Source: an uncultured Gaiellaceae bacterium
GTDB taxonomy: Bacteria; Actinomycetota; Thermoleophilia; Gaiellales; Gaiellaceae
Direction of reading: 5' to 3'
DNA: 64,000 bases
Assembly: GCA_963723695.1 (NCBI GenBank)
Contig: CAVRRU010000009.1
Span: 106,456-170,455, forward strand
Position 1 is the first letter of the stretch; every line of letters begins with the position of its first letter. Below the pieces are notes generated by a model. That model ran no database searches, had not been told where the DNA came from, and worked only from the letters and a program-made list of their open reading frames with translations. This document shows, piece after piece, positions 11,786 through 33,419 of the stretch. A program made the position numbers and the translations under genes.

Positions 11786-11787
11786 GG

Positions 11788-11803
11788 GCGAGGCTTGCCT
11801 CGC
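11788..11803. terminator. short hairpin between convergent polA and MBL-fold genes
   Basis: GCGAGGC TT GCCTCGC read directly. Short stem, no U-tract. Weak. Confidence 0.25.
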
Positions 11804-11811
11804 GCTCGGCC

Positions 11812-12525: not shown

Positions 12526-12599
12526 GCAGGGTTTCTAGCCGATGCCCGAGCCCTTTCCGACCGTTCGGACGGTAGACCTGAATTTACGCTGCATCTGGC

Positions 12600-12605
12600 T
12601 ATACT
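12600..12605 (+). promoter_or_regulatory. -10 hexamer TATACT for a (near-)leaderless rpsA transcript
   Basis: TATACT lies 10 nt upstream of ATG 12616, with no Shine-Dalgarno between them. Confidence 0.45.
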
Positions 12606-12615
12606 CCGCGCTCCG

Positions 12616-17105: not shown

Positions 17106-17876
17106 TCAGGACTGGAGCGTTGCCGTGTAGGTCTTCAGGCCGCTCGAGCACTTGTAGTGCGTACCCTCGAGATCGAACTCCGCGGTTCCCGTCACGGTGC
17201 CGGTGACCGTCGCGCCCTCGATCTTCCCTGTGACCGTGTCGGTGAAGGTTGCCGGCTTGTCGTCGACGGTCCCTGTCCCGGAGCTCGACGCAGAGAACGT
17301 TCCGTCGGTGGCGATCCGGAACCTGCTCGCTCCCCACTCGAGCGTCCCGTAGACGTAGAGGTTGTCGTTGCAGTCCTCGCGTAGGTAGTTCGACCGGAAC
17401 CCAGTGATCGTTCGATCCGCCAGGATCTGGAAGAAGACGAAGTTGCCGTCCAACAGGCCCTGGTACGAACCAGCCGTGATCGGAGTGACAGGAGGCGGAG
17501 GCGGTGCAGTCGGAGGCGGAGGGACCGGCACAGGCACCGTCGTCTGTACACCCATGACGACCTCGCAGTCGCCGCCGATCTTGTCCAGGCGGTCTCCGCG
17601 CGCAATGTCCTGTCCGCCGCCACAAGACAGCTTGTCGGCACCTCGGCCTCCGACCAGCAAGTCGTCTCCCGGGCCGCCGTTCAGGACATCGTTCCCCGCA
17701 GCGCCGTAGAGCTTGTCGTTGCCGCCCTTGCCGTTGAGCGCGTCGGCCTTGGCGCCTCCCCGCAGTGTGTCGTTCCCCGCTGTTCCCTTGATCGTCGTTG
17801 CACCCACCGTCGCGGCTGCGATCAGTGCGCCGCAGACGAGGATCGGGATGATGCTCGTGCGCCTCTTGAGTGACAT
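17106..17876 (-). CDS. secreted calcium-binding RTX-repeat protein
   Basis: Signal peptide. GGxGxD nonapeptide repeats (GTAGNDTLRGGAKADALNGKGGNDKLYGAAGNDVLNGGPGDDLL). Pro-rich linker plus a C-terminal beta-rich domain. GGAGGGAG RBS 8 nt before the ATG. Confidence 0.75.
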   Translation of the reverse strand: MSLKRRTSIIPILVCGALIAAATVGATTIKGTAGNDTLRGGAKADALNGKGGNDKLYGAAGNDVLNGGPGDDLLVGGRGADKLSCGGGQDIARGDRLDKIGGDCEVVMGVQTTVPVPVPPPPTAPPPPPVTPITAGSYQGLLDGNFVFFQILADRTITGFRSNYLREDCNDNLYVYGTLEWGASRFRIATDGTFSASSSGTGTVDDKPATFTDTVTGKIEGATVTGTVTGTAEFDLEGTHYKCSSGLKTYTATLQS

Positions 17877-17922: not shown

Positions 17923-17955
17923 AGCGTCGGTGCTGCTGCTCAAGAAACGCTCAAG
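17923..17955 (-). promoter_or_regulatory. SARP-type promoter: TTGAGCG-N4-TTGAGCA, 8 bp, -10 GACGCT
   Basis: Minus-strand reading. Heptamers at 17948-17954 and 17937-17943 (11-bp phase), hexamer at 17923-17928. Upstream of the RTX gene start at 17876. Confidence 0.55.
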
Positions 17956-19307: not shown

Positions 19308-19340
19308 AGCGTGCTCGTCCTCCCTCAAGAATCGCTCAAG
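19308..19340 (-). promoter_or_regulatory. SARP-type promoter: TTGAGCG-N4-TTGAGGG, 8 bp, -10 CACGCT; leaderless geometry
   Basis: Heptamers at 19333-19339 and 19322-19328, hexamer at 19308-19313. The A of ATG 19300 lies 8 nt after the hexamer. Confidence 0.55.
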
Positions 19341-19722
19341 CCTCGACGAACTGGATCGCTGCTCGGCTCGAGATGATCAGGCGGCCGCCGTCGTACCAGC
19401 GTCCGGAGAAGTCATGCCAGCCCGCAGCAAGGCCGTTGGGAAACTCCGCAATGTTTGACTTCCGTACCGGCACACCGGCCTCGGTCTGCACATCGGTGAG
19501 CATCGAGATGGCCTTGCCGTCCACGTCGAGCTCGAACCGTGTGCTGGCATCGTCCAGACGCACGCCGTCGTCGGGCTCGGCCGCGAACCCGTAGCCGACC
19601 CAGAAGCTCGTCTCGGCGGCGTGCATCGTCGGCGTCGCTCCTCCGGGGAAGATCCCGATCCGTCCCTCCTTCTCCGCCATTCCGTCCGACGGCGAGACGG
19701 TGAAGACCACGAGTGCAGCCAT
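19336..19722 (-). CDS. hypothetical small protein
   Basis: 128-aa ORF. Strong RBS AAGGAGG 5 nt before ATG 19722. No recognisable domain. Confidence 0.6.
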   Translation of the reverse strand: MAALVVFTVSPSDGMAEKEGRIGIFPGGATPTMHAAETSFWVGYGFAAEPDDGVRLDDASTRFELDVDGKAISMLTDVQTEAGVPVRKSNIAEFPNGLAAGWHDFSGRWYDGGRLIISSRAAIQFVEA

Positions 19723-19754: not shown

Positions 19755-19787
19755 AGCGTGCCCGCGATAGCTCAAGCTCGGCTCAAA
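19755..19787 (-). promoter_or_regulatory. SARP-type promoter: TTGAGCC-N4-TTGAGCT, 8 bp, -10 CACGCT
   Basis: Heptamers at 19780-19786 and 19769-19775, hexamer at 19755-19760. Upstream of the gene starting at 19722, in the divergent intergenic region shared with the SARP-cyclase gene. Confidence 0.5.
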
Positions 19788-19854
19788 GCGGGGATGGAAA
19801 TTCGGCGTGCCCCGTGAGAAAGTGCGAACCGCACAAGCACCGAGGGGAAGTCGG

Positions 19855-22800
19855 ATGGACGGAGCGAGTCGGGCAGGCACCCAAGCGCTCGACGTACGCC
19901 TTCTCGGCCCAATCGAGGTCGAGCGAGGCGGCGTTCCTGCGGCGCTCGGAGGCCAGAAGCCGCGTGCGCTCCTGACTGTTCTCGCACTCGAGCCGGGTCG
20001 CGTCGTGTCGGTCGACCGGCTCGTCGAGTCGCTTTGGCCGGGCGAGCCGCCGGAGACGGCCTCGCATGCCGTCCAGGTCTACGTCTCCCAGCTGCGCAAG
20101 GCGCTCGGCCCGAAAACGCTCGTCACGCAAGCGCCGGGCTACGTCCTCGAGCTCCAGGCCGACGGCGTCGACGTCCATCGCTTCTTGCGCCTTGCCCAGG
20201 AAGGAAGCGCGGCCCTCGAGTCGGGCGAGGCGGCAGCGGCCGAAGTCGCGCTCCGCGAAGCGCTGGCCTTGTGGCGCGGGCCTGCACTCGCGGACTTCCT
20301 CTACGAGCCGTTCGCCCAGACGCACATCGCTCGTCTCGAGGAGCTACGCACAGTCGTCGTCGAGGAGCGGATCGAGGCAGACCTGGCCCTCGGGCGTCAC
20401 GCCGAGCTCGTCGCCGAGCTCGAGGCGCTCGTTCAGGCGGAGCGGCTTCGCGAGCGTCCGCGAGCGCAGCTCATGCTTGCGCTTTACCGGTCCGGCCGGC
20501 AGGCCGATGCGCTCGCCGCGTATCGCGATGCGCGCGAGACGCTCGTCGACGAGCTCGGCATCGAGCCGGGCCACGAGCTCAGGGGGCTCGAGGCCGCGAT
20601 CCTGCGGCAGGACGAGTCGCTGCTGCTCGAGGAGGTCCCGCTCGCGAAGTCGGCGATGCAGTTCCGACGGCTCGTCACGATTCTCTTCGTTGACGTCGTC
20701 GAGTCGATGTCGATTGCGGAGGCGCTCGACGCCGAGGCCCTCAGTCTCGTCCTGCGCCGGTACTTCGAGACCGTCTCTGCGGCGATTACGCGACACGGAG
20801 GAGCGATCGAGAAGTACGCCGGAGACTCCGTCATGGCGGCCTTCGGTATTCCGGTTTCGCACGAGGACGACGCGCTCCGCGCCGCCCGCAGTGCGCTCGA
20901 CATCCGGGCCGGGGTTGCCGCACTGAACGAACAACTCATGCGCGAGTACGGGATGGGACTCGATGTTCGGATCGGGTTCGAGGCGGGGGAGGTCGTCGCC
21001 ACGCCCACAGAAGCGCGGCAGCGGCTCGTCGCCGGCGAGGCGGTCGGGATCGCCTCACGGCTCGAGCAGGCGGCGGGCTCCCACGAGATCCTCGTCGGCG
21101 AGCTCGCCGGTCGACTGATCGACCACGCAGCGGTGCTCGACCCCCTCGGCGAGCTCGACATCAAAGGGAGGCGCCAGCCCGTCCGTGCGTACCGGCTGCT
21201 GGAGCTCACGCCTGTTGCGCCCGCATTCGAAGCGCGGAACGAGGCGCCGCTCGTCGGTCGCAAGCGAGAGCTTGCGGCCCTGCGTAAGGCGCTCAAGCGT
21301 GCGACCGACGCGGGCAGCGTTCATGTCGCCCTGGTCACGGGGCCGCCCGGCGTCGGAAAGTCGCGCCTCGCTGCCGAGCTCACCCGCCGCGCGAAGGGCG
21401 TGACGACACTCTGGGGCCGGTGTCTCTCGTACGGCGAAGGCATCACCTACTGGCCCCTTCGCGAGGTCGTTGCCCAGGCGCCCGAAAGCGGTGCGCGCGA
21501 CGCATTCATCGCTGCGCTGGATGCCGGGACGCCTCCGCCTGCGCCAGAGATCGCGCTCCTGTTCCGGCAGTTCTGCAGCGCTCTTGCGCACGAGAAGCCG
21601 CTCGTTCTCGCCCTCGACGACGTCCACTGGGCCGAGCCCACGCTGCTCGAGTTGGTCGAGCAGCTCGCCGCTAAGGGCACCGGGCCGGCGCTCGTCGTAT
21701 GCGTCGCCCGCGAAGAGCTCCTCGACGAGCGGACGGGGTTCCTCGACGGGCAGAGCAACGTCGCCCGGATCGGTCTCGACGCGCTCTCCGGCGAGGAAGC
21801 GGATGCGCTCATCGACGGCCTTGGTGGCACAGTCCTCGAGTCCGATCAACGCGCGCGGGTCGCGTCGGCGGCGGAGGGTAATCCCTTCTTCCTCGAACAG
21901 CTGCTCGCCCTCGCGCTCGAAGGTGGGCTCGGCACGGGGACGATCCCCGAGACCGTGCAGGCGCTCCTAGCAGCCCGCCTCGACCGGCTCGGCCCCGGCG
22001 AGCGCGCGGTGCTCGAGCGAGGGGCCGTGATCGGGAAGGAGTTCAGGCTCGACGACGTCGTCGCCCTCCTCGAGCCTGACGCTGCGCCGACGACCGAGGT
22101 GCACATGAACGCGCTCGCCGCTCGGGGCTTCCTCCGGCCGGCTGCGCCGGGAGAGTTCCGTTTTCGGCATGTCCTCGTCCAGCAAGCCGTGTATCGCGCC
22201 GCCCCTAAGCGATTGCGCGCTGAGCTGCACGAGCGCTACGCGGATCGACTTGATACCGAATCGCCGGATCTCCCCGATCTCGACGAGTTCGTCGGCTACC
22301 ACCTCGAGGGAGCGTACTTCCTCCGGACTGAGCTATCCGGGTCAGATCGACGCACCCAGCGGCTGGCTGAGGATGGGGGAAAACGGCTGCGATCGGCGGG
22401 AATGCGGGCACTTCGCCGCGGTGACATGCCCGCGGCGAGTGCCGTGCTCAGGCGGTCATCACAGCTTCTTCCCGCTGACGACGCGGCACGGCGCGAGGTC
22501 GTGTGCGATCTCGCGCTCTCGTACTACGCGCAGCACGAGACGGAACGTGCGATCGCTCTGCTCGAGAGCTTGCTCGAGGAACCTGTCTCACCAGCGACTG
22601 CGAACACGCGAGCCCGCGCACGTACCGAGCTCGAGTTCATTCGTCTTCGCAATGAAGTCGGTCGGACGGCTGACGCCCTGCTCGAAGCGATCGAAAGCGG
22701 CATTCCCATCTTCGAGCGTCTCCGCGACGATCGAGCGCTTGGTAGAGCGTTGCTGCTGTCCGGTTGGGTCCATGGCGGCCGCCGAGGAAGAAATGCCGCT

Positions 22801-23616
22801 TGGACAGCCGATGCAGAAAGAGCACTGGAGCACTACGAATCGGCCGGCTGGCCGCTCTCGCTTTGTTTGGGCCAGATCGCGATCTCGCTCTACTGGGGCC
22901 CTACACCCGTCGCGGACGCCATGACGCGCATCGAGACCCTTCGCGATCGGGTAGAAACCGATCTTCAGGGCACCGCGAACCTGGACACGTTCCTGGGCGG
23001 GCTCGTTGCCCAGCTCGGCGACTTCGAGCGGGCCCGCGAGGTGGTCGGCGGAGCGCGATCAGTTTTCGAGAGTCTCGGACTGCGAGCGCAGGCCCTCACA
23101 TACCCGGTCACCGTTCTCGGAGAGATCGAGCTCCTCGCCGGCAACGCGGCAAGTGCAGAGGCAGTCCTTCATGAACTCTGCGCGGACCTCGAGAGGTACG
23201 GAGAGTTCAGTCACCTTGCTAGTAGGGCGAGCGATCTCGCCGAGACTCTGTTCTTGCTCGACCGCATCGACGAAGCGGAGAAGTGGACCGGCGTCGCTCG
23301 AAGGTACGCGGCGCACGACGATGTCCAGGCGCAGATGATGTGGCGTCCCGTACAGGCGAGGATCGAGCTGCGCAAAGGCGCCGTCGATCTTGCCGATCGA
23401 CTCGCGCGAGAGGGTCTGTCCGTAGCCAATACGACCGACGATCTCAACCGGCGTGCCAAGGCATATGCCGCGCTCGGAACGGTTCTCCGTGCAACTGGGC
23501 GACAGGGGGCAGCCGAGAGCGCCTATCGGCAGGCGATCCATCTCTACGAGCAGAAGGGGAACGTGGCCGGCGTTGAGCAGCTCCGCATGCTCGACGCGAA
23601 GCTCGCTCGGGTCTGA
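19855..23616 (+). CDS. large multidomain regulator: SARP (wHTH+BTAD) - class III adenylate/guanylate cyclase - P-loop ATPase - TPR
   Basis: VRLLGPIEV and ALWRGPALADF (SARP/BTAD). VTILFVDVVESMS...EKYAGDSVMAAFG (cyclase, about 20670-21200). VALVTGPPGVGKSRL (about 21340). Long helical/TPR tail. ATG 19855 preferred over GTG 19807. Confidence 0.8.
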   Translation: MDGASRAGTQALDVRLLGPIEVERGGVPAALGGQKPRALLTVLALEPGRVVSVDRLVESLWPGEPPETASHAVQVYVSQLRKALGPKTLVTQAPGYVLELQADGVDVHRFLRLAQEGSAALESGEAAAAEVALREALALWRGPALADFLYEPFAQTHIARLEELRTVVVEERIEADLALGRHAELVAELEALVQAERLRERPRAQLMLALYRSGRQADALAAYRDARETLVDELGIEPGHELRGLEAAILRQDESLLLEEVPLAKSAMQFRRLVTILFVDVVESMSIAEALDAEALSLVLRRYFETVSAAITRHGGAIEKYAGDSVMAAFGIPVSHEDDALRAARSALDIRAGVAALNEQLMREYGMGLDVRIGFEAGEVVATPTEARQRLVAGEAVGIASRLEQAAGSHEILVGELAGRLIDHAAVLDPLGELDIKGRRQPVRAYRLLELTPVAPAFEARNEAPLVGRKRELAALRKALKRATDAGSVHVALVTGPPGVGKSRLAAELTRRAKGVTTLWGRCLSYGEGITYWPLREVVAQAPESGARDAFIAALDAGTPPPAPEIALLFRQFCSALAHEKPLVLALDDVHWAEPTLLELVEQLAAKGTGPALVVCVAREELLDERTGFLDGQSNVARIGLDALSGEEADALIDGLGGTVLESDQRARVASAAEGNPFFLEQLLALALEGGLGTGTIPETVQALLAARLDRLGPGERAVLERGAVIGKEFRLDDVVALLEPDAAPTTEVHMNALAARGFLRPAAPGEFRFRHVLVQQAVYRAAPKRLRAELHERYADRLDTESPDLPDLDEFVGYHLEGAYFLRTELSGSDRRTQRLAEDGGKRLRSAGMRALRRGDMPAASAVLRRSSQLLPADDAARREVVCDLALSYYAQHETERAIALLESLLEEPVSPATANTRARARTELEFIRLRNEVGRTADALLEAIESGIPIFERLRDDRALGRALLLSGWVHGGRRGRNAAWTADAERALEHYESAGWPLSLCLGQIAISLYWGPTPVADAMTRIETLRDRVETDLQGTANLDTFLGGLVAQLGDFERAREVVGGARSVFESLGLRAQALTYPVTVLGEIELLAGNAASAEAVLHELCADLERYGEFSHLASRASDLAETLFLLDRIDEAEKWTGVARRYAAHDDVQAQMMWRPVQARIELRKGAVDLADRLAREGLSVANTTDDLNRRAKAYAALGTVLRATGRQGAAESAYRQAIHLYEQKGNVAGVEQLRMLDAKLARV

Positions 23617-23955: not shown

Positions 23956-24108
23956 CTACGCGGCTGCCGCTGCAGGAGCATCGCGCGGAACGAGCTCGCG
24001 ACGCCACTTCGGCGGGCACTCCTCTGCCCGGAAGGCCTCGACGACGGCGAGGTATCGCTCGACCTCCTGGATCAGTCGCATTGGGTCGATGTTGGCTAGA
24101 CGTTCCAT
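23956..24108 (-). CDS. unlisted 50-aa ORF (MERLANIDPMRLIQEVERYLAVVEAFRAEECPPKWRRELVPRDAPAAAAA)
   Basis: Below the ORF-track cutoff. Good GC3. ATG 24108 lies 7 nt after the -10-like hexamer of a SARP-type promoter (leaderless geometry, same as the 19300 gene). Confidence 0.4.
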   Translation of the reverse strand: MERLANIDPMRLIQEVERYLAVVEAFRAEECPPKWRRELVPRDAPAAAAA

Positions 24109-24114
24109 GGCGTC

Positions 24115-24147
24115 ATGGTCGTCCGTGTTTCTCAAGATCCGCTCAAG
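24115..24147 (-). promoter_or_regulatory. SARP-type promoter: TTGAGCG-N4-TTGAGAA, 8 bp, -10 GACCAT
   Basis: Heptamers at 24140-24146 and 24129-24135, hexamer at 24115-24120. Sits between the deacetylase stop (24155) and the 50-aa ORF. Confidence 0.5.
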
Positions 24148-24154: not shown

Positions 24155-24913
24155 CTAGCTATCGAGCTTGTCCGCAAGGCCGTCGACGCCATCACTTCCG
24201 CCAACGCGAACGCGGCGCAGCTCGTACGGCTCGTCCGGCCTCGCGAGTCCCTCCACAGTCGTCGTCGCGCCGAGATAGCCGGCGCGGCGGACTGCGCGGA
24301 TTACGCTCGAGTCGTACCTGCCAGCCGGATAGCAGATGAAGTCGACAGGCACTCCGAAGCGGGACCGGAGTATCGCTCTCGAGCGCGTCACTTCGCGCCT
24401 GAGTGTGGGTTCATCGAGGCTTGTGAGATCCGGGTGAGTGAGCGTGTGCGACGCGAGCTCCCAGCCTGCTGCAATGAGCATCCGCACTCTGTATTGGCTC
24501 AGCCCGCCCGAAACGCGAAGATTCTTGACCGTCAGGTTGAGGACTCCCGGCCACGATCTCTTCTGCATGTGGGGCAGCGCTGCCTCGGCGACGCTGCGGT
24601 ATCCGTCGTCGAACGAGATGACGATGGGCTTCGCAGGCAACGCGCTGCCCCGGTGCCAGTGATTCCAGAGGTCGCGTTGCGTCACTGCCGTGTATCCGTG
24701 GCGCGCAAGCCATTTCATCTGACCTGCGAAGTCGGGCTCACTGACATAGAGGTCCGGGTACGGAGCGCCCGCCGGCGCATCGGCGATTACGTGGTACATG
24801 AGGATCGGGACCGGGGTGGCGGAGTGGGACGCGTTGGTTGCGGACTGGCCGCATGCGGCGAAGACGAGGGCGGCGACGAGCGCCGCGGCTGAGGTGATGC
24901 GTGAGGTAGTCAT
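24155..24913 (-). CDS. secreted polysaccharide deacetylase (NodB homology domain)
   Basis: Lipoprotein-like signal MTTSRITSAAALVAALVFAACG. ISFDDGYRS, ASHTLTHPDL, ICYPAGRY motifs. ATG 24913 preferred over TTG 24940. Confidence 0.8.
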   Translation of the reverse strand: MTTSRITSAAALVAALVFAACGQSATNASHSATPVPILMYHVIADAPAGAPYPDLYVSEPDFAGQMKWLARHGYTAVTQRDLWNHWHRGSALPAKPIVISFDDGYRSVAEAALPHMQKRSWPGVLNLTVKNLRVSGGLSQYRVRMLIAAGWELASHTLTHPDLTSLDEPTLRREVTRSRAILRSRFGVPVDFICYPAGRYDSSVIRAVRRAGYLGATTTVEGLARPDEPYELRRVRVGGSDGVDGLADKLDS

Positions 24914-24978
24914 GGCCCGCACGGTCGGAGGGGCCTCCAACCGGCCGGCAACGGGCTGCCAACGTCTCGCTAACTGCC
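24885..24978 (-). repeat. copy A of a 94-nt duplicated leader plus signal-peptide start (about 87% identical to 25908-26001)
   Basis: Ungapped alignment by eye. Includes the conserved hairpin CGGTTGGAG-NCCC-CTCCGACCG (24922-24943, minus-strand sense) and GTTAGCGAG (24968-24976). Confidence 0.8.
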
Positions 24979-24979: not shown

Positions 24980-25936
24980 CTACAGGTCGAGTGGGAAGTA
25001 CGCGCGGGTGGTGTTGTTTCGGGTGTCGAGTGCGACGATCTCGATGACGTACGAGCTGCGGCGGAGCTCGCTCAGCTCGCCGGCGCGGTTCAGGTGGAGC
25101 CGGTAACGGCCGGGCTCGCGTACGTGGTTCTGCGTGGTTCCGTCCGCCCAGATCGAGTCGAACTCGGACGCGGAAGGGATCGTCTGGCGGAAGTCGACAG
25201 CGTTCCTCCACGGAAGGAGCGGCCTGCGGTCTTTGCTCAGGAGCCGCCAGCGGACGAGCGCGGGCATGACCGGCAGGTCGTGCCAGGGGCGCGGGACGGC
25301 CAGCGGGGTTTCGTCGTACGCCTCGGCCACCAGCATCGTGTCCTCGATTGAGAGCGATCGCACGCTTGGCGAGGTGTTGTCGGCATACGGGCCGAGCGCG
25401 CCGCCTCGGAGCGGGTTCAGGTACCGGCCGTGGCGACGCTCGGAGAAGTGGACGTGTCCGTAGGGCGCCTCGATGTGGCCGACGACTGTCTTGTACGCGA
25501 CCACGCGCTGGCCTCCCCGGATGACGGGGACGACGTGCCAGTAGCTGAACTCGACACCTGAGTCGGCGACGACCAGGATCGTCGTCGGATGCAGTGGATG
25601 GATGTACGCCCGCCCCGTCAGAGTTGCGTAGACGGGCGCGCCGTTGGGAGCGGAGATGTCGACGCCGAAGTGGAACTGGCGGGACTCGCCGTGGTTGGCG
25701 ACCCGCGGATCGCCGAAAAAGCCGCGGACGGGGTGCTGTCGACGGAACGGCTTGACGGGCCATGCATACGCGTACTTCTCGGTCGACGCTCGCGTTCTCG
25801 GAGCTGGCAGCACAGTGCCTGTTGAGATCTGCCGGCTCGACGCATTGGCTGCGTTGCCCCCGACGCCTGCGCTCGCAGCTGCGAGGGCGAGTGCGGTGAT
25901 TGCCACCGCGGCTTGAGTGATGCGTGAGGTAGTCAT
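24980..25936 (-). CDS. secreted M23/LytM family peptidase
   Basis: Signal MTTSRITQAAVAITALALAAASA. HFGVDISAPNGAPVYA and GHVHFSE are M23 zinc-site motifs. ATG 25936 preferred over GTG 25975. Confidence 0.8.
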   Translation of the reverse strand: MTTSRITQAAVAITALALAAASAGVGGNAANASSRQISTGTVLPAPRTRASTEKYAYAWPVKPFRRQHPVRGFFGDPRVANHGESRQFHFGVDISAPNGAPVYATLTGRAYIHPLHPTTILVVADSGVEFSYWHVVPVIRGGQRVVAYKTVVGHIEAPYGHVHFSERRHGRYLNPLRGGALGPYADNTSPSVRSLSIEDTMLVAEAYDETPLAVPRPWHDLPVMPALVRWRLLSKDRRPLLPWRNAVDFRQTIPSASEFDSIWADGTTQNHVREPGRYRLHLNRAGELSELRRSSYVIEIVALDTRNNTTRAYFPLDL

Positions 25937-26001
25937 GACCGGCACGGTCGGAGGGGTCTCCAACCGGCCGGCCACCGCCTGACAACGGCTCGCTAACCGC
26001 G
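25908..26001 (-). repeat. copy B of the duplicated leader plus signal-peptide start
   Basis: See copy A. Hairpin at 25945-25966, GTTAGCGAG at 25991-25999. Confidence 0.8.
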
Positions 26002-26002
26002 T

Positions 26003-26035
26003 CTTGAGCGGGTCTTGAGCGCATTCGAGTGATCT
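26003..26035 (+). promoter_or_regulatory. three tandem heptamers (TTGAGCG, TTGAGCG, TCGAGTG; 11-bp phase) plus -10-like TGATCT upstream of the SARP-SIR2 gene
   Basis: Heptamers at 26004-26010, 26015-26021 and 26025-26031. TGATCT at 26030-26035 lies 8 bp after the second heptamer and 9 nt before ATG 26045 (leaderless geometry). Confidence 0.55.
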
Positions 26036-26044: not shown

Positions 26045-27697
26045 ATGCTGGACACAGCACAGCCGGACGATCTAAGGTCGCCCGTGACGCTCGACTTCCG
26101 GATACTCGGCCCTCTCGAGGTCTCCGACGAGACCGGGCCCGTCGCGCTGGGCGGTCCCAAGCAGCGCGCGCTGCTCGCGATTCTCGTGCTCGATGTCGGC
26201 CGGGTCGTCCCGACCGATCGGCTGATCGACCAGCTGTGGGGTCGAGAGGCGCCCAAGACGGCCAACGCATCGCTCCAGAATTCGGTGGGCCGTCTGCGCC
26301 GAGCCCTGGGCACCGAGGTTCTCAAGACTCGATCGCCCGGTTACGTGTTGAACGCCGACCCGGCCCAGATCGACGCACGGCGCTTCGAGCGGGCGCTGGG
26401 GGATGCGAGGCGGTCGCCCGCCGAAGAGCGCCGTGCGCGCTTGCAGGCAGCGCTCGCGCTCTGGCGTGGCCCGGCGCTCGCGGAGTTCGCCTTCGACGAC
26501 TTCGCCCAGCCGGAGATCCGCAGGCTCGAGGAGCTACGGCTCGTTGCTCATGGGGAGCGGATCGACGCGGACCTCGAGCTTGGGCGGCATGGCGACGTCA
26601 TCGGCGAGCTCGAGGCGCTCGTCAGCGAGCATCCGCTGCGGGAGACCTTCCGGACGCAGTTGATGCTGGCGTTCTACCGGGCGGGCCGGCAAGCGGAAGC
26701 CCTCGATGTCTACCAGGACGCGCGCTCACGTTTCATCGACGAGCTCGGAATCGAGCCCGGACCGGAGCTCAAGCGGCTCCAGTCGGAGATCCTTCGCCAC
26801 GAGGCCGGCCTGGCCGTGTCCGATCAGCCGGCCCCAACGGACGAGGAGGGCGAGATCATCCGGGCCCTTCTCGCGGGCCGGGTGGTCCCCGTGATCGGTC
26901 TCGACGGTGCCGGCGACCTCGCCGAACATCTCGCCAAGGCGTTCTCGGTTCCCGACGACCGACCCGTCGACCTCGCGCGCGTTTCCCAGTACGTGGCGAC
27001 GATGCAGGGATCGGGGCCACTGTACGACGAGCTCCATACGCGGTTCGAGGCGGCTGTCGAGCCGAGCCCGCTTCATCGCTTCCTTGCGCGTTTGCCGGCA
27101 CTGCTACGCGAACGAGGTGCTCCTCACCAGCTCATCGTCACCACCAACTACGACCTCGCGCTCGAGCGCGCCTTCGAGGAGACCGGTGAAGAGCTCGACA
27201 TCGTCTCCTACGTCGCGACGGGGCCGCATCGCGGCCGCTTCTGGCATCGGCCACCCGGGGAGCCGCCTCGACCAATCGACGTTCCCAACACGTATGCGAC
27301 GGAGCTCAGCCTCGATCGTCGTACGATCCTCCTGAAGCTGCACGGTGCGGTCGACCCGCTCCCCGAGCGCGAGTGGGAGAGCTTCGTGATCACTGAGGAC
27401 GACTACATCGACTATCTCGGTCGCGCAGAGCTGACTGCGGTCGTCCCCGTGGCTCTCGCCGCCAGGCTCCGGCGCAGCCACTTCCTCTTCCTCGGCTACG
27501 AGATGGCCGACTGGAACCTTCGCCTCATCCTCAACAGGATCTGGGGCGAGCGGCCCGTCGCGTACCGCTCATGGGCCGTTCAGCATTCTCCGAGCCCGCT
27601 CGCGCAGGCGTTCTGGCGACGGTTCGACGTCGCCGCATTGGACGTCGATCCGCGCTCGTACGTCGAGCTCCTCGAGCGACGGCTCGAGGCAGCATGA
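26045..27697 (+). CDS. SARP-family wHTH+BTAD DNA-binding module fused to a SIR2_2-type (sirtuin-like) domain
   Basis: FRILGPLEV, ALWRGPALAEF, AFYRAGRQAEAL (SARP/BTAD), then VVPVIGLDGAG, TTNYD (27140-27154), KLHG (27335-27346), FLFLGYEMADWN (SIR2_2-like). Alternative starts GTG 26036 and GTG 26084. Confidence 0.75.
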   Translation: MLDTAQPDDLRSPVTLDFRILGPLEVSDETGPVALGGPKQRALLAILVLDVGRVVPTDRLIDQLWGREAPKTANASLQNSVGRLRRALGTEVLKTRSPGYVLNADPAQIDARRFERALGDARRSPAEERRARLQAALALWRGPALAEFAFDDFAQPEIRRLEELRLVAHGERIDADLELGRHGDVIGELEALVSEHPLRETFRTQLMLAFYRAGRQAEALDVYQDARSRFIDELGIEPGPELKRLQSEILRHEAGLAVSDQPAPTDEEGEIIRALLAGRVVPVIGLDGAGDLAEHLAKAFSVPDDRPVDLARVSQYVATMQGSGPLYDELHTRFEAAVEPSPLHRFLARLPALLRERGAPHQLIVTTNYDLALERAFEETGEELDIVSYVATGPHRGRFWHRPPGEPPRPIDVPNTYATELSLDRRTILLKLHGAVDPLPEREWESFVITEDDYIDYLGRAELTAVVPVALAARLRRSHFLFLGYEMADWNLRLILNRIWGERPVAYRSWAVQHSPSPLAQAFWRRFDVAALDVDPRSYVELLERRLEAA

Positions 27698-30600
27698 GCG
27701 CGAAGCCCGAGTCGCCGTACAAGGGCCTGAATCCGTTCGACGACTCGGAGGTCGACGCGCTTCTCTTCTTCGGGCGGGAGCGAGAGACGGCGATCGTCGT
27801 AGCGAACCTGATCGCCGCTCGGCTGACGGTGCTTTACGGCCCGAGCGGTGTCGGGAAGTCCTCACTTCTGAGCGCGGCCGTGGCCCGTTCGCTGCGCGCG
27901 CTCGCCGAGGGACCGCTCGTCGTCGTGTTCTCGAGCTGGAGCGACGATCCGAACCCCGCTCTCGCCGAGGCGGTCGGGAAAGCGGCCGGGCTCACGACTG
28001 ACGGCTCCGCGGTCGGGGCGCTCGAGCTGGCGCAGTCCGAGCGCGACGTGTACCTCATCCTCGACCAGGCCGAGGAGTACTTCCTGTACCACGCCGACGA
28101 CGGTGGCCCCGGGTCGTTCGCGGAGGCGCTACCGGCCATCCTCGCCGCCCCGACCCGCGTGAACGTGCTGGTCTCCCTGCGCGAGGATTCGCTTGCGAAG
28201 CTCGACCGCTTCACGGGCCGGATTCCGGGGTTGTTTGCGAACACACTTCGACTCGATCGGCTCGATCGCGGCGCCGCGCGCAAGGCTGTGCTCCGACCGG
28301 CCGAGCGCTATGCGGAGCTGACCGGCGAATCGGTGATCATCGAGCCGGCGCTCGTCGAGCGTGTCCTCGACGAGGTCGGTGCGGGGCGGATCGAGCCTGC
28401 CCTCGGGGGCCTCGGCACAGTCGAAGCACTCGACGCGGGCGGACGGATCGAAGCGCCCTACCTCCAGCTCGTCATGCAGCGCCTGTGGGACGAGGAGCGC
28501 GCATCCGGCTCGACGGAGCTCAGAGCTGAGACCTTCGAGCGACTGGGCGGCGCGCAACACATCGTGGAGGAGCACCTCGAGGGTGCGATGGCCGAGCTCA
28601 CCATCGCGCAGAGCGACCTAGCCGCGCGGATCTTCAACCACCTCGTCACGCCGTCGGGGACGAAGATCGCCCACGAAGTCGCCGACCTCGCCGATTTCGG
28701 CCGTGTCAGTGAGCCCGAGCTTACCCCGGTTCTGACGACGCTCACGGACCGGCGCATCCTGCGGTCGATCGACGAGGGTCGCGGTGTCCGGTACGAGATC
28801 TTCCACGACGTCCTCGGAGAGCCGGTGCTCGCGTGGCGAACCCGACACCGCACGGAGCGGGAGATCGAGCGACAGGTCGAGGAGCAGGCGAGACGCCGAA
28901 CGCGCATGCAGCGCCTCATCGGACTCGCGCTCGGGCTACTCGCCCTCCTGCTCGCCGTCGCCGCGTTCGGCGTCCTGCAGCAGCGCAACGCCGACGAGCA
29001 GTCGCGTGACGCGCAGGCGCGCACGCTTGATGCGTCGGCTATCGCCCTCCTGCCCGAGGATCCCGAGTTGAGCGTTCTCCTGGCGCGCGAGTCGGCGCGG
29101 ATGGCTCCTGGACCGACTGCGGAGGACGCACTCCTCCAGTCGCTCCTCACGTCGCACCTGCGAGACGTCCGATCGACGGCCGGCGCCATCACGTCGATGG
29201 ACTCCACTGGGGGAGGGAGCAAGCTCGTCGCTTACGCCAGTGACGACGGCGTCGCGCGGGTCGTCGACCTGCGCACCGGTACTCGACGCTTCACGACGAA
29301 GGTCGGCACGGGCGGGCGAGTCTCATTCTCTCCGAGTGGCTCGACGGTTCTCGTCTCCGGCGGCGCAGGCCCGCCGCGAGTGCTCGACGTCGCGAAGGGC
29401 CGGGCCGTGTGCAGGCTGGGCGACCGGGCGAGCGCGCCGTCGGCGGACGCGGTTTTGCTCGCGAACCGTGCGGTTGCGGTCCGCAACGGGGTCGCATACG
29501 TCTGGAATACGCGCACGTGCCGGCTCGTCCACACCCTCGGGCGGGTGGGTAGGACCGCGGTACGCGTCGTCGCGAGCCCGGATGGCATGCGTGTCGCGTT
29601 CCTGTCTGGGCGTGAAGCGCGAGTCGCGGACCCCGTACGCGGACGGCTTCTCTTCCGCCTGAGGCACCCGGGCGACATCACGAGCGTCGCGTTCAGCACG
29701 GACGGCAATCGCATCGTGACGGGCGGGCGTGATCGGCTCGCACGCATTTGGAACGGTCGCACCGGAAGGCTGGTTCACGAGCTGAGTGGGCACTCGGGTC
29801 AGGTGCTGGACGTCGCGATCGGGCCTCCGGGAACCGAGGTCGCGACTGCCAGCACAGACGGCACGGCACGCGTCTGGGACGTGTCGACCGGCCTCCTGCT
29901 CGCGCCCCTCTTCGGGCACACGAACTTCGTTCGCTCCGTCGACTTCAGCGCCGACGGCCAGACGGTCGTCACAGGGAGCGACGACGGGACCGGGCGAACA
30001 TGGGCTCTCAACGGGCGCCGGCTCGCCACGCTCGCACGTCACTCCGGCGCGGTGGTGGACGCACTTCTGACTTCGGACGGATTCGACGTCGTCACGGCCG
30101 GAGAGGACGGCACGGTACGGCTGTGGGACGCTGCCACGCGACCGGACCTGGTGCGCTCGCGCCGCGCCCAACCGCCCCCCGCTCCCCAGACGACGGCAGA
30201 GAGCTCCACCGGCGACGCGAAGGCGACGATCGACGACCACGTCGTCCGTCTCGAGCGCGATGGCGAGGCAATCGACCTCGAGGGTCATCGCCTGGCCGTT
30301 ACGAGCGTCGCCTTCTCGCCGGACGGCACGCGCCTGCTCACGGCGGCTCGAGATCACGAGGTGCGGCTCTGGGATGTGGCGACCGGCGGATCGCTGCGCG
30401 TACTCCGTGGTCACTTCGGCACGGTGAACGACGCGCGTTTCAGCCCTGACGGTCGTTGGATCGTCACCGCCGGCCCGAGATCGGTCGGCCTGTGGCGCGC
30501 ATCCGATGGTCGCCTGATCCGCCTGCTCGCGGGGCCGGAAGGCCCGTTTCTCGCCGCCGGGTTCGAAGCCGACTCACGCACGATCGTCGCGCGATCGGCC

Positions 30601-30732
30601 GGCGACGTGATCAGCGCGTACGACTGCCGGATCTGCGCCGGCATTCCGGAGCTGCTCGCACTCGCAGACGAACGCCTGCGCGCGAGCGAGAGGGAGCTAA
30701 CGGCCGAGGAGCGCGCGCTCTACTTCGGCTGA
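27694..30732 (+). CDS. novel-STAND (NACHT-like) P-loop NTPase - single TM helix - WD40 beta-propeller protein
   Basis: The ATG overlaps the upstream TGA (ATGA 27694-27697). SPYKGLNPFDDSEVDALLFFGRERE, GPSGVGKSS, VYLILDQAEE. Hydrophobic LIGLALGLLALLLAVAAFGVL (about 28915-28980). Many WD40 blades (GHSGQVLDVA, GHTNFVRSVDFSADG, GHRLAVTSVAFSPDG, VRLWD). Confidence 0.8.
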   Translation: MSAKPESPYKGLNPFDDSEVDALLFFGRERETAIVVANLIAARLTVLYGPSGVGKSSLLSAAVARSLRALAEGPLVVVFSSWSDDPNPALAEAVGKAAGLTTDGSAVGALELAQSERDVYLILDQAEEYFLYHADDGGPGSFAEALPAILAAPTRVNVLVSLREDSLAKLDRFTGRIPGLFANTLRLDRLDRGAARKAVLRPAERYAELTGESVIIEPALVERVLDEVGAGRIEPALGGLGTVEALDAGGRIEAPYLQLVMQRLWDEERASGSTELRAETFERLGGAQHIVEEHLEGAMAELTIAQSDLAARIFNHLVTPSGTKIAHEVADLADFGRVSEPELTPVLTTLTDRRILRSIDEGRGVRYEIFHDVLGEPVLAWRTRHRTEREIERQVEEQARRRTRMQRLIGLALGLLALLLAVAAFGVLQQRNADEQSRDAQARTLDASAIALLPEDPELSVLLARESARMAPGPTAEDALLQSLLTSHLRDVRSTAGAITSMDSTGGGSKLVAYASDDGVARVVDLRTGTRRFTTKVGTGGRVSFSPSGSTVLVSGGAGPPRVLDVAKGRAVCRLGDRASAPSADAVLLANRAVAVRNGVAYVWNTRTCRLVHTLGRVGRTAVRVVASPDGMRVAFLSGREARVADPVRGRLLFRLRHPGDITSVAFSTDGNRIVTGGRDRLARIWNGRTGRLVHELSGHSGQVLDVAIGPPGTEVATASTDGTARVWDVSTGLLLAPLFGHTNFVRSVDFSADGQTVVTGSDDGTGRTWALNGRRLATLARHSGAVVDALLTSDGFDVVTAGEDGTVRLWDAATRPDLVRSRRAQPPPAPQTTAESSTGDAKATIDDHVVRLERDGEAIDLEGHRLAVTSVAFSPDGTRLLTAARDHEVRLWDVATGGSLRVLRGHFGTVNDARFSPDGRWIVTAGPRSVGLWRASDGRLIRLLAGPEGPFLAAGFEADSRTIVARSAGDVISAYDCRICAGIPELLALADERLRASERELTAEERALYFG

Positions 30733-31525: not shown

Positions 31526-33364
31526 TCAGCCTCTGACGAGGAGTAACGCATGCGCGCTTGCGCTCGGGCTGGCCGCTCGCGTGCCGACGAAGAAAGCGCG
31601 GACACGCCAACGTCCCACCGCAGGCGGCGACCACGACACGGTTGCGAGGCCACCGCTTCCGACGCGCGCGACGAGGATCCGCGAGAACTGCCAGCCTTCG
31701 ATCGGATCGAAGTGATCGATGCGGAATCGCACGTGTCCTCCTACGGCGGCGTCAGGCGTCACGCCAGACGAGAGTTGGACGTCGCGACTGTATTCCGCCG
31801 TCGCGGTTGGCACTCCTTCGACGAGTGCGATCGTCGTCGAGATCTCGCGAATCAGCAGCGAGACTCGGTACTCACCTGCGTTCTGGCCGCGCGCGCGAAT
31901 TGCGACGAAATACTGACCCTCCTCGAGTTTCGCGCGAAGCTCGGGCCTCCGTGCCGCCCCGCAGACGCACTTGACGTAGTTGCCCTCGCTCGACAGCAAG
32001 AAAAGTTCGAAGGTCGCCTTCCGAGGAGTCCGGAGTCGTGCCGTCACCTCGGTCCGGTGGGTCACATCGAAGCGATAGAGATCGAGCACGTCGATTGAGC
32101 GCGCTGACAAGGAACCTCGGCGTGTCTGACCGTTGCGGATGAGAAGACCGGGAGCCAAGTCGTCGCGCCCGGCTCGAGCGACCTGCAGCCGATAGCGCTG
32201 TGCTCCGCCCCGGTGCCCCTCCGACCTGACGAGCAGGCTGTAGCGTCCGCCCTCGTCGGGGCCCGGCGTGAAGACGAGGTACCCGCCGCAGGGACGTCGA
32301 TCCACAACGCGGCGATCGTCGAACGAGGAGGTCCCGGGCCTGAACAGGGACAGCGGGAGACAGCGGCCGCGATCCGGCGCGAGGTTCAATCGGTATGTCC
32401 GTCCGGCTGTCAGTGCGACCGACCATGCAGCTTCCGGCCGGCTCAGCGGGTCCACGCTCGACCTCGCCCCGCCGGTGGGAAGGCGCGCTCCGGGCGCCTT
32501 CGCGAGCGGAGGTGCGAAGAGCTCGAGCCGAAATGTGCTCGACGCCGAGTCTGACCGCTCGCCGACGACGATGAGGTGCTGGCGTCCCCGCTCCGCCTGG
32601 AAGGCCACTCCGCCGATTCCGTTCTCGTCCGTCGGCACGCAGCCGAGCGGCTTGTACTGCGAGCGCACACGCCGGAAGACTGCCACGACTGCATCGAGCC
32701 TTCCGCGAGCACGAATCCGGACGGCGATCCGTCCACGCAGGCGCGTCGTGAGGCTGTACCACACCGTCGAGCCTGACGCCCCGCAGCCGAGCTCGGGGTC
32801 CGAGTAGTCGGAGGTTGCACCGATCGTCGTCCCATCGATCGACGACGGGGGAGTGTGGAGCATGGCCGCGTTTCGGCGCGCGTCGTTCGTAGGCGTGACA
32901 TAGACCTCGGTGCGTCCCACGCCGGCAGCATGCGTTTCGCTTCCGGAGTACGACGCGGTGATCGTGTGTGTCCCGTTGCCGATCGCTTCGGGCTGGTACG
33001 CCATCGAGCAAGTCGCAGCCGCCGCGGCGCTGGCCGCAAGTGTGCAGCTTTCGGGGTCGAACGACCCGGGCCCGGTGCTTGCCAAGCCCACCGTTCCGGC
33101 CGGAGCGGCCTTCTTGCCGGAGCCGGTATCGGCGACCTTCGCGGTGCAGAGAGCCGATGCTCCTGGCGTCAGCGTCTCTTGGTTGCACGTCACGGTCGTC
33201 CTGGTCGATCTGAGCGCGGTGATGCCGTCTGCCGACACGGGCGCCGAGGCAGCCGGGGTGGGGCCGACAACGCCGACGACCGCGACCGTCGTTGGAACGA
33301 GCACGGCGATCCTGAGTACCGACCTACCACGATCCGCGAACGAGCTGAGCGAGATGCGCTTCAC
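31526..33364 (-). CDS. large secreted protein with Ig-like and PPC-like beta-domains (hypothetical)
   Basis: 612-aa ORF. AAGGAGG RBS 5 nt before GTG 33364. Signal/anchor, then Cys-containing beta-rich repeats. No catalytic motif recognised. Confidence 0.6.
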   Translation of the reverse strand: MKRISLSSFADRGRSVLRIAVLVPTTVAVVGVVGPTPAASAPVSADGITALRSTRTTVTCNQETLTPGASALCTAKVADTGSGKKAAPAGTVGLASTGPGSFDPESCTLAASAAAAATCSMAYQPEAIGNGTHTITASYSGSETHAAGVGRTEVYVTPTNDARRNAAMLHTPPSSIDGTTIGATSDYSDPELGCGASGSTVWYSLTTRLRGRIAVRIRARGRLDAVVAVFRRVRSQYKPLGCVPTDENGIGGVAFQAERGRQHLIVVGERSDSASSTFRLELFAPPLAKAPGARLPTGGARSSVDPLSRPEAAWSVALTAGRTYRLNLAPDRGRCLPLSLFRPGTSSFDDRRVVDRRPCGGYLVFTPGPDEGGRYSLLVRSEGHRGGAQRYRLQVARAGRDDLAPGLLIRNGQTRRGSLSARSIDVLDLYRFDVTHRTEVTARLRTPRKATFELFLLSSEGNYVKCVCGAARRPELRAKLEEGQYFVAIRARGQNAGEYRVSLLIREISTTIALVEGVPTATAEYSRDVQLSSGVTPDAAVGGHVRFRIDHFDPIEGWQFSRILVARVGSGGLATVSWSPPAVGRWRVRAFFVGTRAASPSASAHALLLVRG

Positions 33365-33386: not shown

Positions 33387-33419
33387 ATCTTCCGCGCCGA
33401 TCCTCAAGGAATGCTCAAG
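33387..33419 (-). promoter_or_regulatory. SARP-type promoter: TTGAGCA-N4-TTGAGGA, 8 bp, -10 GAAGAT
   Basis: Heptamers at 33412-33418 and 33401-33407, hexamer at 33387-33392. It lies in the 57-nt divergent gap between the 33364 gene and uvrB. Confidence 0.5.

Follow-up and report, generated by a model that had tools for sequence, protein, structure and literature searches.

STAND and NLR proteins are known as cytoplasmic sensors which carry their own effector or act as transcription factors, as in the case of MalT and AfsR. Another group of proteins relevant here is represented by KomC, ThsA, DSR2, Avs5, and SIR2-HerA, all of which are anti-phage SIR2 NADases, several being active as helical filaments. 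Here, we analyze a pair of overlapping genes in a 64,000-nt stretch from an uncultured Gaiellaceae bacterium (assembly GCA_963723695.1, contig CAVRRU010000009.1, positions 106,456 to 170,455 of the forward strand; hereafter, the window), which has a high GC content (65% to 72%). Gene 1 encodes a Streptomyces antibiotic regulatory protein (SARP) module fused to a SIR2 domain, whereas the NTPase and sensor expected of a large SARP are encoded on a separate polypeptide by gene 2, as an nSTAND1 NTPase, a transmembrane helix, and a WD40 propeller. The pair belongs to a widely distributed type of SIR2–nSTAND1 cassette, SARP being one of many N-terminal additions to SIR2. We tentatively suggest that it is a split, membrane-bound STAND switch which turns on nearby genes for envelope and secreted proteins and has SIR2 mainly as a coupling scaffold. 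The features of the pair are the following:

26045..27697, + strand: gene 1, SARP-SIR2 protein of 550 amino acids (open reading frame [ORF] from ATG 26045 to TGA 27697; Pfam, AlphaFold2 model, Foldseek)
26153..26350, + strand: OmpR-type winged-helix DNA-binding domain, residues 37–102 (Pfam PF00486 Trans_reg_C, E = 1.3e-9)
26369..26794, + strand: BTAD helical domain, residues 109–250 (Pfam PF03704, E = 1.9e-46)
26846..27694, + strand: SIR2_2-type domain, residues 268–550 (Pfam PF13289 at residues 363–525, E = 1.2e-21)
Within the SIR2_2 domain of gene 1, + strand: glycine loop VIGLDGAG (G285 invariant among 110 family members)
27140–27154, + strand: TTNYD motif, residues 366–370 (sequence, profile alignment)
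27335–27346, + strand: KLHG motif, residues 431–434 (sequence, profile alignment)
27694..27697, + strand: ATGA overlap of the gene 1 TGA with the gene 2 ATG (sequence)
27694..30732, + strand: gene 2, nSTAND1 NTPase–transmembrane helix–WD40 protein of 1012 amino acids (ORF, Pfam, AlphaFold2 model)
27715..28905, + strand: nSTAND1 NTPase module, residues 8–404 (Pfam PF20703, E = 1e-47, profile positions 1–373 of 379)
27838–27864, + strand: Walker A motif GPSGVGKSS, residues 49–57 (conserved in orthologues)
28054–28077, + strand: Walker B motif LILDQAEE, residues 121–128 (conserved in orthologues)
28918..28974, + strand: single predicted transmembrane helix IGLALGLLALLLAVAAFGV, residues 409–427 (hydropathy 2.64 over 19 residues)
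29158..30624, + strand: WD40 beta-propeller region of about 12 blades, residues 489–977 (Pfam WD40, E = 3.1e-53; 47 strands in the AlphaFold2 model)

All domains of the pair belong to known families, and both the SIR2 plus STAND (Avs5) and the SARP plus STAND (AfsR) combinations are already known. AfsR, other large SARPs and EmbR share the winged-helix and BTAD domains with gene 1 (41% identity and a TM-score of 0.91 in the case of AfsR), and the AfsR likeness extends to the association of a STAND-type NTPase and a repeat sensor with the SARP and to the candidate target sites, which are heptamers repeated every 11 bp close to the −35 element. However, the large SARPs combine the SARP, NB-ARC/NOD, and TPR parts in one polypeptide, whereas gene 1 ends after SIR2, which occupies the C-terminus of the SARP protein, and the separately encoded NTPase is nSTAND1 rather than NB-ARC, with WD40 behind a transmembrane helix in place of TPR. 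Gene 1 is thus not a large SARP of the AfsR type; EmbR, in turn, is a SARP with an FHA domain rather than SIR2, and, unlike in the AfsR-type setting, no biosynthetic gene cluster was found among the neighbors scanned in the window. Avs5 similarly consists of a defense-type SIR2, a STAND NTPase, and a C-terminal sensor, and its SIR2 fold matches that of gene 1 (9jap and 9nc9). Nevertheless, in cytoplasmic Avs5, SIR2 forms the N-terminal part of the STAND protein itself, whereas here it is the product of a separate upstream gene, the NTPase is nSTAND1, and a transmembrane helix precedes the sensor; with 2 ORFs joined by an ATGA overlap, the pair does not belong to the Avs5/SIR2-STAND systems (AVAST type 5). 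Among solved structures, KomC (Kongming), ThsA (Thoeris), and DSR2 come closest to the SIR2 half by sequence profile and by fold but are only 15% to 21% identical to it, and the pair contains no KomA/B, SLOG, Macro, ThsB, or DSR2 HEAT-like tail. With the partner or sensor parts missing, assignment to Thoeris, DSR2, SIR2-HerA, pAgo-SIR2, or Kongming was rejected; for Thoeris, gene 1 lacks SLOG and Macro, and no TIR gene was found among the scanned neighbors in the window. Finally, gene 2 resembles Apaf-1 in the succession of NTPase, helical and winged-helix domains and a WD40 sensor, but has no CARD or any other domain before the NTPase, which is nSTAND1 rather than NB-ARC, and carries a transmembrane helix between NTPase and WD40, placing it outside the AP-ATPase/Apaf-1 family.

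nSTAND1 has been described within predicted conflict systems by Kaur, Iyer, Burroughs, and Aravind in 2021 (PMC8195603). As far as the searched parts of that text extend, these systems have the same NTPase family and the same logic of variable effectors (TIR, caspase/CHAT, kinase, SIR2) and effector-associated domains as the cassette considered here, whereas a two-gene SIR2–nSTAND1 cassette, a SARP fusion, and a transmembrane helix are not mentioned in those parts. None of the searched terms occur in an earlier paper, Kaur et al. 2020 (PMC7159879), and a 2024 review of SARPs distinguishes only small, medium, large, and SARP-LAL classes, SARP-SIR2 not being among them (PMC10972967). In the PADLOC library (2023 version), only partial SIR2 matches were obtained (ThsA, 1.7e-15 over residues 424–499; PDC-S25, 2.4e-6) and none for the NTPase, indicating that the pair is not a catalogued defense system in that release. 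The architecture had been annotated in a first pass, from the sequence alone, as undescribed. Indeed, no description of a SARP-SIR2 fusion or of a SIR2 plus nSTAND1 pair was found in the literature searched, but the notion of an isolated oddity did not hold, the pair being one variant of a wide cassette. Accordingly, what is new relative to that literature is the cassette of 2 genes, SIR2 and nSTAND1, whose NTPase is often anchored in the membrane, the SARP-SIR2 fusion, and the clade-wide loss of the SIR2 asparagine in a conserved orthologue.

The first-pass annotation had read gene 1 as a winged-helix and BTAD module joined to a SIR2_2-type domain, and Pfam, the AlphaFold2 model, and Foldseek agree with this assignment. 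The BTAD match spans the whole profile (1–146) directly behind the winged helix, and with an OmpR-type winged helix followed by BTAD, the predicted protein has the domain composition of a SARP. The NCBIfam model of AfsR aligns with residues 14–265 (E = 2.8e-59), far below the equivalog cutoff; a scan of the pair against NCBIfam yielded no match above cutoff, with only AfsR and BagI below it. The AlphaFold2 model of gene 1, for which 110 family sequences were the input, has a mean predicted local distance difference test (pLDDT) score of 92.6 and a disordered linker at residues 259–263. Foldseek searches against PDB align its N-terminal half with the SARP domain of AfsR in transcription-initiation complexes (8k60, 8hvr; TM-score 0.88 to 0.91 on the target, 41% identity), with EmbR, including the DNA-binding domain, as a further match, whereas the C-terminal half matches the SIR2 domains of KomC, ThsA, DSR2, Avs5, and SIR2-HerA, the probability being 1.00 for the first three. 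Consistently, a profile of the SIR2 domain searched against PDB sequences retrieves the same NADases (E = 1.8e-10 to 2.5e-6), and gene 1 displays the sequence features of defense-type SIR2 proteins, namely, a Rossmann fold with a Gly-rich loop and both the Asn and the His. Relatives of gene 1 are called at 550, 553–556, or 537 amino acids, corresponding to candidate starts at ATG 26045, GTG 26036, and GTG 26084, respectively. Just past ATG 26045, the sequence CTGGACA (26047–26053) is conserved at the DNA level in 5 relatives (L018, L020, L021, L029, and L036), where it lies in another reading frame, and could belong to a leader or act in regulation instead of being part of the coding region.

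The TTNYD and KLHG motifs are located at the coordinates first given for them, and the proposal that they occupy catalytic positions survived the profile comparison, which could have placed this half outside the SIR2 superfamily. In the profile search of PDB, TTNYD aligns with ttNYD and K(L/I)HG with KFHG of KomC and DSR2, so that H433 of gene 1 is the counterpart of KomC H146 and DSR2 H171, both of which are altered in catalytic mutants deposited in PDB. The Asn is required for NADase activity in ThsA and DSR2. The H146A substitution nearly abolishes the NADase activity of KomC, for which filament formation is also required (PMC13454610). Among 110 diverse members of the wider SIR2 family, Asn is present in 88 and His in 98, with G285 and G434 being invariant, and TTN[YF]D and KIHG are found in all 6 stand-alone SIR2 partners checked.

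To place the pair among its relatives, one genome per GTDB species was scanned with the SIR2 domain, yielding 464 confirmed loci. The best 80 of the 464 matches, which were analyzed further, are all from Gaiellales (SIR2 identity of 60% to 97%) and, together with 3 more loci, make up a set of 83 loci. By SIR2 identity, they fall into the window clade (at least 82%), a Gaiella-like clade (71% to 80%), and a clade of roughly 60%. Of the 83 orthologues, 43 retain the Asn, almost all of them being from the window clade ([TS]TN[YF]D), and 39 have R, S, A, or H instead: Arg replaces it in 23, nearly all from the Gaiella-like clade (S[TG]RYD), and Ser or Ala in most members of the roughly 60% clade. 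By contrast, His is retained in 80 of 83, and the YD and ITEDDY motifs across the Gaiellales orthologues. The catalytic Asn has thus been lost in 2 of the 3 clades while the domain remained 60% to 80% identical. Across the 83 loci, identity to the window pair decreases from SIR2 (60% to 97%) through SARP (36% to 86%, mostly 55% to 84%) and the NTPase (37% to 86%, mostly 47% to 80%) to WD40 (28% to 66%), SIR2 being the most conserved part of the pair and WD40 the fastest evolving. Given that the Asn was lost from what is the most conserved part, canonical NAD+ hydrolysis is probably not what selection maintains in the Gaiellales SIR2. The link to NAD-dependent chemistry proposed initially may hold for the window protein, which keeps both residues, with NAD+ cleavage being possible in the window clade, but such chemistry may not be a conserved function of the orthologues.

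Gene 2 encodes a protein with the same sequence as database protein P0271. Its NTPase motifs are found where they had been placed, with SPYKGLNPF..FFGRERE at the nSTAND1 N-terminus, and the full-length PF20703 match together with both Walker motifs identifies it as nSTAND1. The motifs are kept in 69 to 77 orthologues, GxxGxGKS and hhhDQxEE being invariant. Given that the Pfam match begins at residue 8, gene 2 has no effector domain of its own. In the AlphaFold2 model (pLDDT 84), a P-loop NTPase that includes helical and winged-helix elements is followed by 2 long helices which flank the hydrophobic stretch of residues 409–427, and 2 terminal helices lie behind the WD40 strands. The hydrophobic helix expected at about 28915–28980 was narrowed by hydropathy to 28918–28974, and the propeller, for which at least 10 blades had been counted, has about 12 in the model. 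A hydrophobic helix is present at residues 387–457 in nearly all complete Gaiellales orthologues. In the window protein, it is preceded by RRRTRMQR, which places 5 Arg on its N-terminal side; since, in addition, the NTPase needs ATP, the WD40 sensor should face the outside of the cell. Apaf-1 was the sole full-length structural analogue of the model (Foldseek, 1126 to 1161 columns, E of about 2e-32, global TM-score of 0.2 to 0.26), although clamping of the NOD by the propellers in the manner of Apaf-1 is unlikely because the transmembrane helix separates the NTPase from WD40. A PDB sequence search with the nSTAND1 module recovered no relative below E = 0.19.

Several further observations concern gene 2. 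A CxxC motif (C978, C981; 30625–30636) is invariant at the end of WD40 and is followed by a conserved helical tail, ELL.LA..RL...R.LT..ER..Y; the 2 cysteines could form a disulfide if the WD40 region is extracytoplasmic. A subset of orthologues (P0350, P0357, and P0360–P0376) is about 1310 amino acids long, the extra length being in the WD40 region, and their NTPase halves are 68% to 83% identical, suggesting that the sensor was expanded inside the same lineage. In many "MFD" contigs of metagenome-assembled genomes (L016, L027, L029, L030, L032, L045, L057, L062, L064, and L065), the gene 2 ORFs are truncated or shifted, which is consistent with assembly indel errors and provides no basis for calling pseudogenes.

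The distribution of the SIR2 half extends far beyond Gaiellales. An exhaustive HMMER search of 1.84 billion cluster representatives recovered 3166 clusters at E ≤ 1e-3 and 681 clusters (50% identity) at E ≤ 1e-30. Most members are about 320 amino acids long and consist of the SIR2 domain alone. SIR2 is C-terminal in all 49 longer members and N-terminal in none of the 150 best family representatives; the N-terminal additions among the 49 are CHAT (9), nSTAND1 (8), BTAD/SARP (7), TIR_2 (6), protein kinase (4), HTH_31 (4), EAD7 (3), guanylate cyclase (3), and caspase (1). In 9 of 9 non-Gaiellales contexts (L084-86 and L087 to L094), the gene following SIR2 encodes nSTAND1, with a shared N-terminal P(Y/F)KGL..FFGR(E/D) signature; the 2 genes overlap by 4 to 8 nt in most of these contexts, and the partner starts a few nucleotides later in 2. 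The arrangements are as follows:

L084-86, L087, L088, L089, L093, and L094: stand-alone SIR2 followed by nSTAND1
L091: CHAT-SIR2 followed by nSTAND1
L090: cyclase-SARP-SIR2 followed by an nSTAND1-WD40 partner
L092, 3207–7647: SIR2 (326 amino acids), nSTAND1-linker-SIR2 (1053 amino acids), and nSTAND1, with a 4-nt overlap at each junction

The last arrangement indicates 2 tandem cassettes with their middle genes fused, which explains the 8 nSTAND1-SIR2 proteins of the family, and the idea that SIR2 had replaced the sensor in such proteins was dropped. According to the source names, stand-alone SIR2 members occur in Anaerolineae and Pyrinomonadaceae, and the cassette spans at least Actinomycetota, Chloroflexota, and Acidobacteriota. 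In the partners of L087, L088, L090, L093, and L094, one or more transmembrane helices are located right behind the NTPase and are followed by unrelated C-termini, including a multi-transmembrane tail in L093 (5742–7475) and, in L094 (10951–13155), a single helix, then a linker rich in Thr, Ala, and Pro, and finally a small domain that contains Cys. Neighbors of the L094 cassette are genes for an N6_Mtase/Eco57I methylase, a PhdYeFM antitoxin, PLDc_2, and HNH, and a TIR gene is found near that of L093.

In Gaiellales, the co-occurrence of the 2 genes, put forward in the first-pass annotation as a condition for regarding them as a system, is complete: the pair was found in 83 of 83 loci, in the order SARP module, SIR2, nSTAND1, and WD40, as far as the contigs allow. 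The ATGA overlap noted at the outset was confirmed in the sequence, and the genes are predicted to be translationally coupled through it. Over the 79 loci in which overlaps and own-promoter boxes were counted, a 4-nt overlap is present in 65, and many of the exceptions have truncated ORFs that look like assembly frameshifts. At the level of 90%-identity clusters, the nearest relatives of gene 2 are at 83% and then 69%, whereas 120 such clusters related to gene 1 cover the range from 91% down to 84%. The pair is located between the rpsA(S1)-coaE side and uvrB plus an M32 peptidase gene both in the window and in the 2 relatives with called genes (L001 and L002); polA and uvrA are also near it in the window, and no mobile-element genes were found among the scanned neighbors there. 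Given its presence in every locus examined and the housekeeping location in 3 genomes, the Gaiellales pair looks like a vertically inherited chromosomal gene pair rather than a mobile or patchy defense island, and in this respect differs from the predicted nSTAND1 conflict systems. In the same neighborhood, the ORF at 10558–14049 (+ strand) combines a DNA_pol_A match (residues 33–341, with the profile truncated at 315 of 381) with 4 S1 domains (rpsA-like) and may be a frameshift or read-through artifact at the polA-rpsA junction.

SARPs bind direct repeats as side-by-side protomers, and their published sites are heptameric direct repeats in 11-bp units, present in 2 or 3 copies and usually overlapping the −35 element (PMC10972967). 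Candidate sites of this kind had been annotated at the promoter of gene 1 and at neighboring promoters, and we found the following boxes along with a second SARP gene in the window:

26002..26031, + strand: own-promoter box of gene 1, three repeats TCTTGAGCG / TCTTGAGCG / (A)TTCGAGTG with 11- and 10-bp spacing (sequence)
25981..25997, − strand: GTTAGC-N5-GTTGTC box facing the M23 peptidase gene (24980–25936, −) (sequence)
24958..24974, − strand: GTTAGC-N5-GTTGGC box upstream of the polysaccharide deacetylase gene (24155–24940, −; Pfam Polysacc_deac_1)
24131..24147, − strand: CTTGAG-N5-CTTGAG box upstream of a 59-amino acid ORF (23956–24135, −)
19771..19787, − strand: TTTGAG-N5-CTTGAG box (one mismatch) upstream of a 128-amino acid ORF (19336–19722, −) divergent from the second SARP gene
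19324..19340, − strand: CTTGAG-N5-CTTGAG box 23 nt upstream of ATG 19300 of the gene for a secreted signal-peptide protein with an InlB B-repeat (17951–19300, −)
17939..17955, − strand: CTTGAG-N5-CTTGAG box upstream of the gene for an RTX-repeat protein (17106–17876, −)
33403..33419, − strand: CTTGAG-N5-CTTGAG box upstream of the gene for a Big_3_5 (Ig-like) protein (31526–33364, −)
19807..23616, + strand: second SARP gene, 1269 amino acids, Trans_reg_C, BTAD, guanylate-cyclase-like, AAA_16, and TPR (SARP-LAL type; Pfam)

In the own-promoter box, the repeats read TTGAGCG, TTGAGCG, and TCGAGTG, and the second hexamer ends 25 nt before ATG 26045; this gap and that of 23 nt before ATG 19300 would fit boxes overlapping the −35 element of leaderless transcripts. 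The heptamer and the 11-bp period of the putative boxes match the published rule. CTTGAG-N5-CTTGAG occurs 5 times exactly in the window (0.01 expected) and 11 times with up to 2 mismatches (4.0 expected), and the merged pattern KTKAGC-N5-KTKRG 7 times exactly (0.42 expected), always upstream of ORFs and within 17.9–33.4 kb, the interval in which the tandem 11-bp heptamers (KTKAGCG) cluster at 8 promoters. Single TCTTGAGCG sites with one mismatch allowed are not enriched in the window (29 versus 26.7 expected), so that only the tandem 11-bp arrangement is significant.

In 50 of the 79 loci, 2 copies of T[GT]AG in tandem, 11 bp apart, are located upstream of gene 1 at clade-specific positions, compared with 1.9% of random 200-nt windows containing such a pair. 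The own-promoter box is conserved at −43 or −85 in the window clade (at least 82% identity), to which the strict TTGAG boxes are almost confined. A GTTAGC-type box is found in the intergenic region between the M23 gene and gene 1 in most Gaiellales loci, and in the more distant clades, GTTAGC/GATTAGC boxes face both genes. The 2 heptamers, TTGAGCG and GTTAGCG, differ at 2 positions only, and the Gaiella-like clade has hybrids between them, such as GTGAGCC-N4-GATTAG. The second SARP gene, 2.4 kb upstream of gene 1, has counterparts within 8 kb in 29 of the 83 loci. In the roughly 60% clade, no second SARP is found within 8 kb, yet boxes precede SARP-SIR2; accordingly, autoregulation by SARP-SIR2 is the simplest reading. 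Thus, of the regulatory claim made initially, the existence of the sites and the enrichment of their tandem form stand, whereas their attribution to SARP-SIR2 rather than to the second SARP appears ambiguous.

For caspases, TIR domains, class III cyclases, and kinases, induced proximity is the established mode of activation. Each module seen N-terminal to SIR2 works either in this way or, as SARPs do, as side-by-side protomers. In the switch that we tentatively favor, gene 2 would be an Apaf-1-like receptor with a cytoplasmic nSTAND1, a single transmembrane anchor, and a WD40 propeller of about 12 blades facing the envelope. Gene 1 would be made in a fixed ratio with it through the ATGA overlap and dock on the NTPase through SIR2, which has nSTAND1 as its constant partner across the cassette family. 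That the NTPase would recruit and cluster SIR2 is suggested by the absence of an effector from nSTAND1 and by the SIR2 protein being its invariant, co-translated neighbor. Detection of a cue by WD40 would lead to NTP-dependent oligomerization of nSTAND1 and clustering of SARP-SIR2, and the clustered SARP modules would bind the 11-bp tandem heptamers over −35 cooperatively, activating their own operon together with the genes for the M23 peptidase, the polysaccharide deacetylase, and the RTX-, InlB-B-, and Ig-like proteins. The SIR2 of the ancestral cassette was probably a proximity-activated NADase effector, which in Gaiellales would have been retained mainly as a coupling and oligomerization scaffold. 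In a stronger form of the same scheme, the pair would constitute a bacterial NLR-like transmembrane receptor, with an extracytoplasmic WD40 controlling nSTAND1 and a catalytically dispensable SIR2 adaptor assembling SARP on the promoter repeats; we regard this form as possible, if rather doubtful.

Everything past the sequence anatomy and the comparative patterns, including membrane topology, the assignment of SARP to boxes, and activation by clustering, we infer, and several points weigh against the scheme. The contact between SIR2 and nSTAND1 is deduced from gene adjacency, and the topology of gene 2 is predicted from hydropathy and charge only. The AlphaFold2 model of gene 2 is of low confidence at residues 11–27 and 231–250 and around the helix. 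Membrane anchoring is not universal in the cassette, since in the L084 partner the NTPase leads straight into WD40 with no transmembrane helix. All closest structural relatives of the SIR2 half are anti-phage NADases, making a NAD-depleting output possible, the more so as the window protein keeps N368 and H433, and the TTGAGCG boxes may be owned by the second SARP (19807–23616).

An alternative is a conflict or abortive-infection role, in which nSTAND1-WD40 would sense an invader or damage and SIR2 would deplete NAD+, with SARP autoregulating the pair or adding a transcriptional alarm. Besides the proximity of the SIR2 half to KomC, ThsA, DSR2, Avs5, and SIR2-HerA, with the His and Asn aligned, and the requirement of KomC for H146 and for filament formation (PMC13454610), this role is consistent with the intact TTN[YF]D and KIHG motifs in 6 of 6 stand-alone partners, the methylase, antitoxin, PLD, and HNH genes near L094 and the TIR gene near L093, and the rapid evolution of WD40, with gene 2 dropping to 83% and then 69% while gene 1 stays at 84% to 91%. 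The CHAT, TIR, caspase, and EAD7 fusions in the family are likewise typical of predicted conflict systems, as described in the searched parts of PMC8195603. However, the pair is present in every Gaiellales locus examined, at a housekeeping site in the window and 2 relatives rather than in a patchy pattern; no mobile-element genes are found in the window neighborhood and no PADLOC system model was matched beyond partial SIR2. Moreover, the Asn is replaced in 2 of 3 clades in a domain that is still strongly constrained, and the conservation of the transmembrane helix would imply a sensor on the outer side of the membrane, out of reach of phage proteins. Given the vertical inheritance, the loss of Asn, and the outward-facing sensor, the conflict role fits the Gaiellales copy less well, and we consider it somewhat unlikely there, a NAD-depleting conflict role being likelier for the ancestral stand-alone cassette. 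The initial description of the pair as a conflict or signaling system is thus tentatively favored in its second part, with the predicted outward WD40 fitting outside-in signaling better than detection of phage proteins inside the cell, whereas the patchy pattern of a defense island was not observed.

Two further explanations concern what the SARP-SIR2 protein itself does. The switch could operate as proposed while the TTGAGCG boxes belong to the SARP-LAL protein (19807–23616), standing above SARP-SIR2 in a cascade, and SARP-SIR2 reads the GTTAGC boxes at the M23 and deacetylase promoters. Cascades of SARPs are known (PMC10972967), 2 SARP genes and 2 box types coexist in the window, and GTTAGC boxes are found beside SARP-SIR2 in all clades, facing SARP-SIR2 itself in those of 60% to 80% identity, whereas TTGAG boxes are almost confined to the window clade. 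Nevertheless, with heptamers differing at only 2 positions, one protein could read both, as the hybrid sites of the Gaiella-like clade also suggest, and only 29 of 83 loci have the second SARP at a distance of up to 8 kb, though the flank limit may hide others; we hold this division of labor to be improbable. Still less probable, in our view, is that SARP-SIR2 acts at promoters as a NAD+-responsive protein-modifying factor, a deacylase or ADP-ribosyltransferase, with the STAND gene merely sharing its operon. The window protein does have an intact Rossmann Gly loop, Asn, and His, and members of this SIR2 subfamily repeatedly carry a DNA-binding N-terminus (SARP, HTH_31), but the domain belongs to the SIR2_2 defense-type clade rather than to the deacylase sirtuins, Asn is lost in many orthologues, and the overlapping or near-abutting SIR2–nSTAND1 adjacency, invariant across phyla, points to a functional complex.

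The cassette family appears to differ from the STAND/NLR proteins known so far in that the effector SIR2 is separate and translationally coupled, that the NTPase is often membrane-anchored, and that the SIR2 protein accepts many proximity-activated N-terminal modules. In Gaiellales, where the module has become part of the core genome, is joined to an activator and lacks, in 2 of the 3 clades, a catalytic residue, it could show how a NAD-depleting immune effector is repurposed for signaling. It also provides a candidate regulon of cell-envelope proteins in a soil lineage that is abundant but almost uncultured. Should the pair be an NLR-like receptor, it would represent a cell-suicide effector turned scaffold and a STAND switch distributed over 2 polypeptides with transcription as its output, and would constitute an undescribed outside-in route in Actinomycetota, distinct from two-component systems, extracytoplasmic function (ECF) sigma factors, and Ser/Thr kinases.

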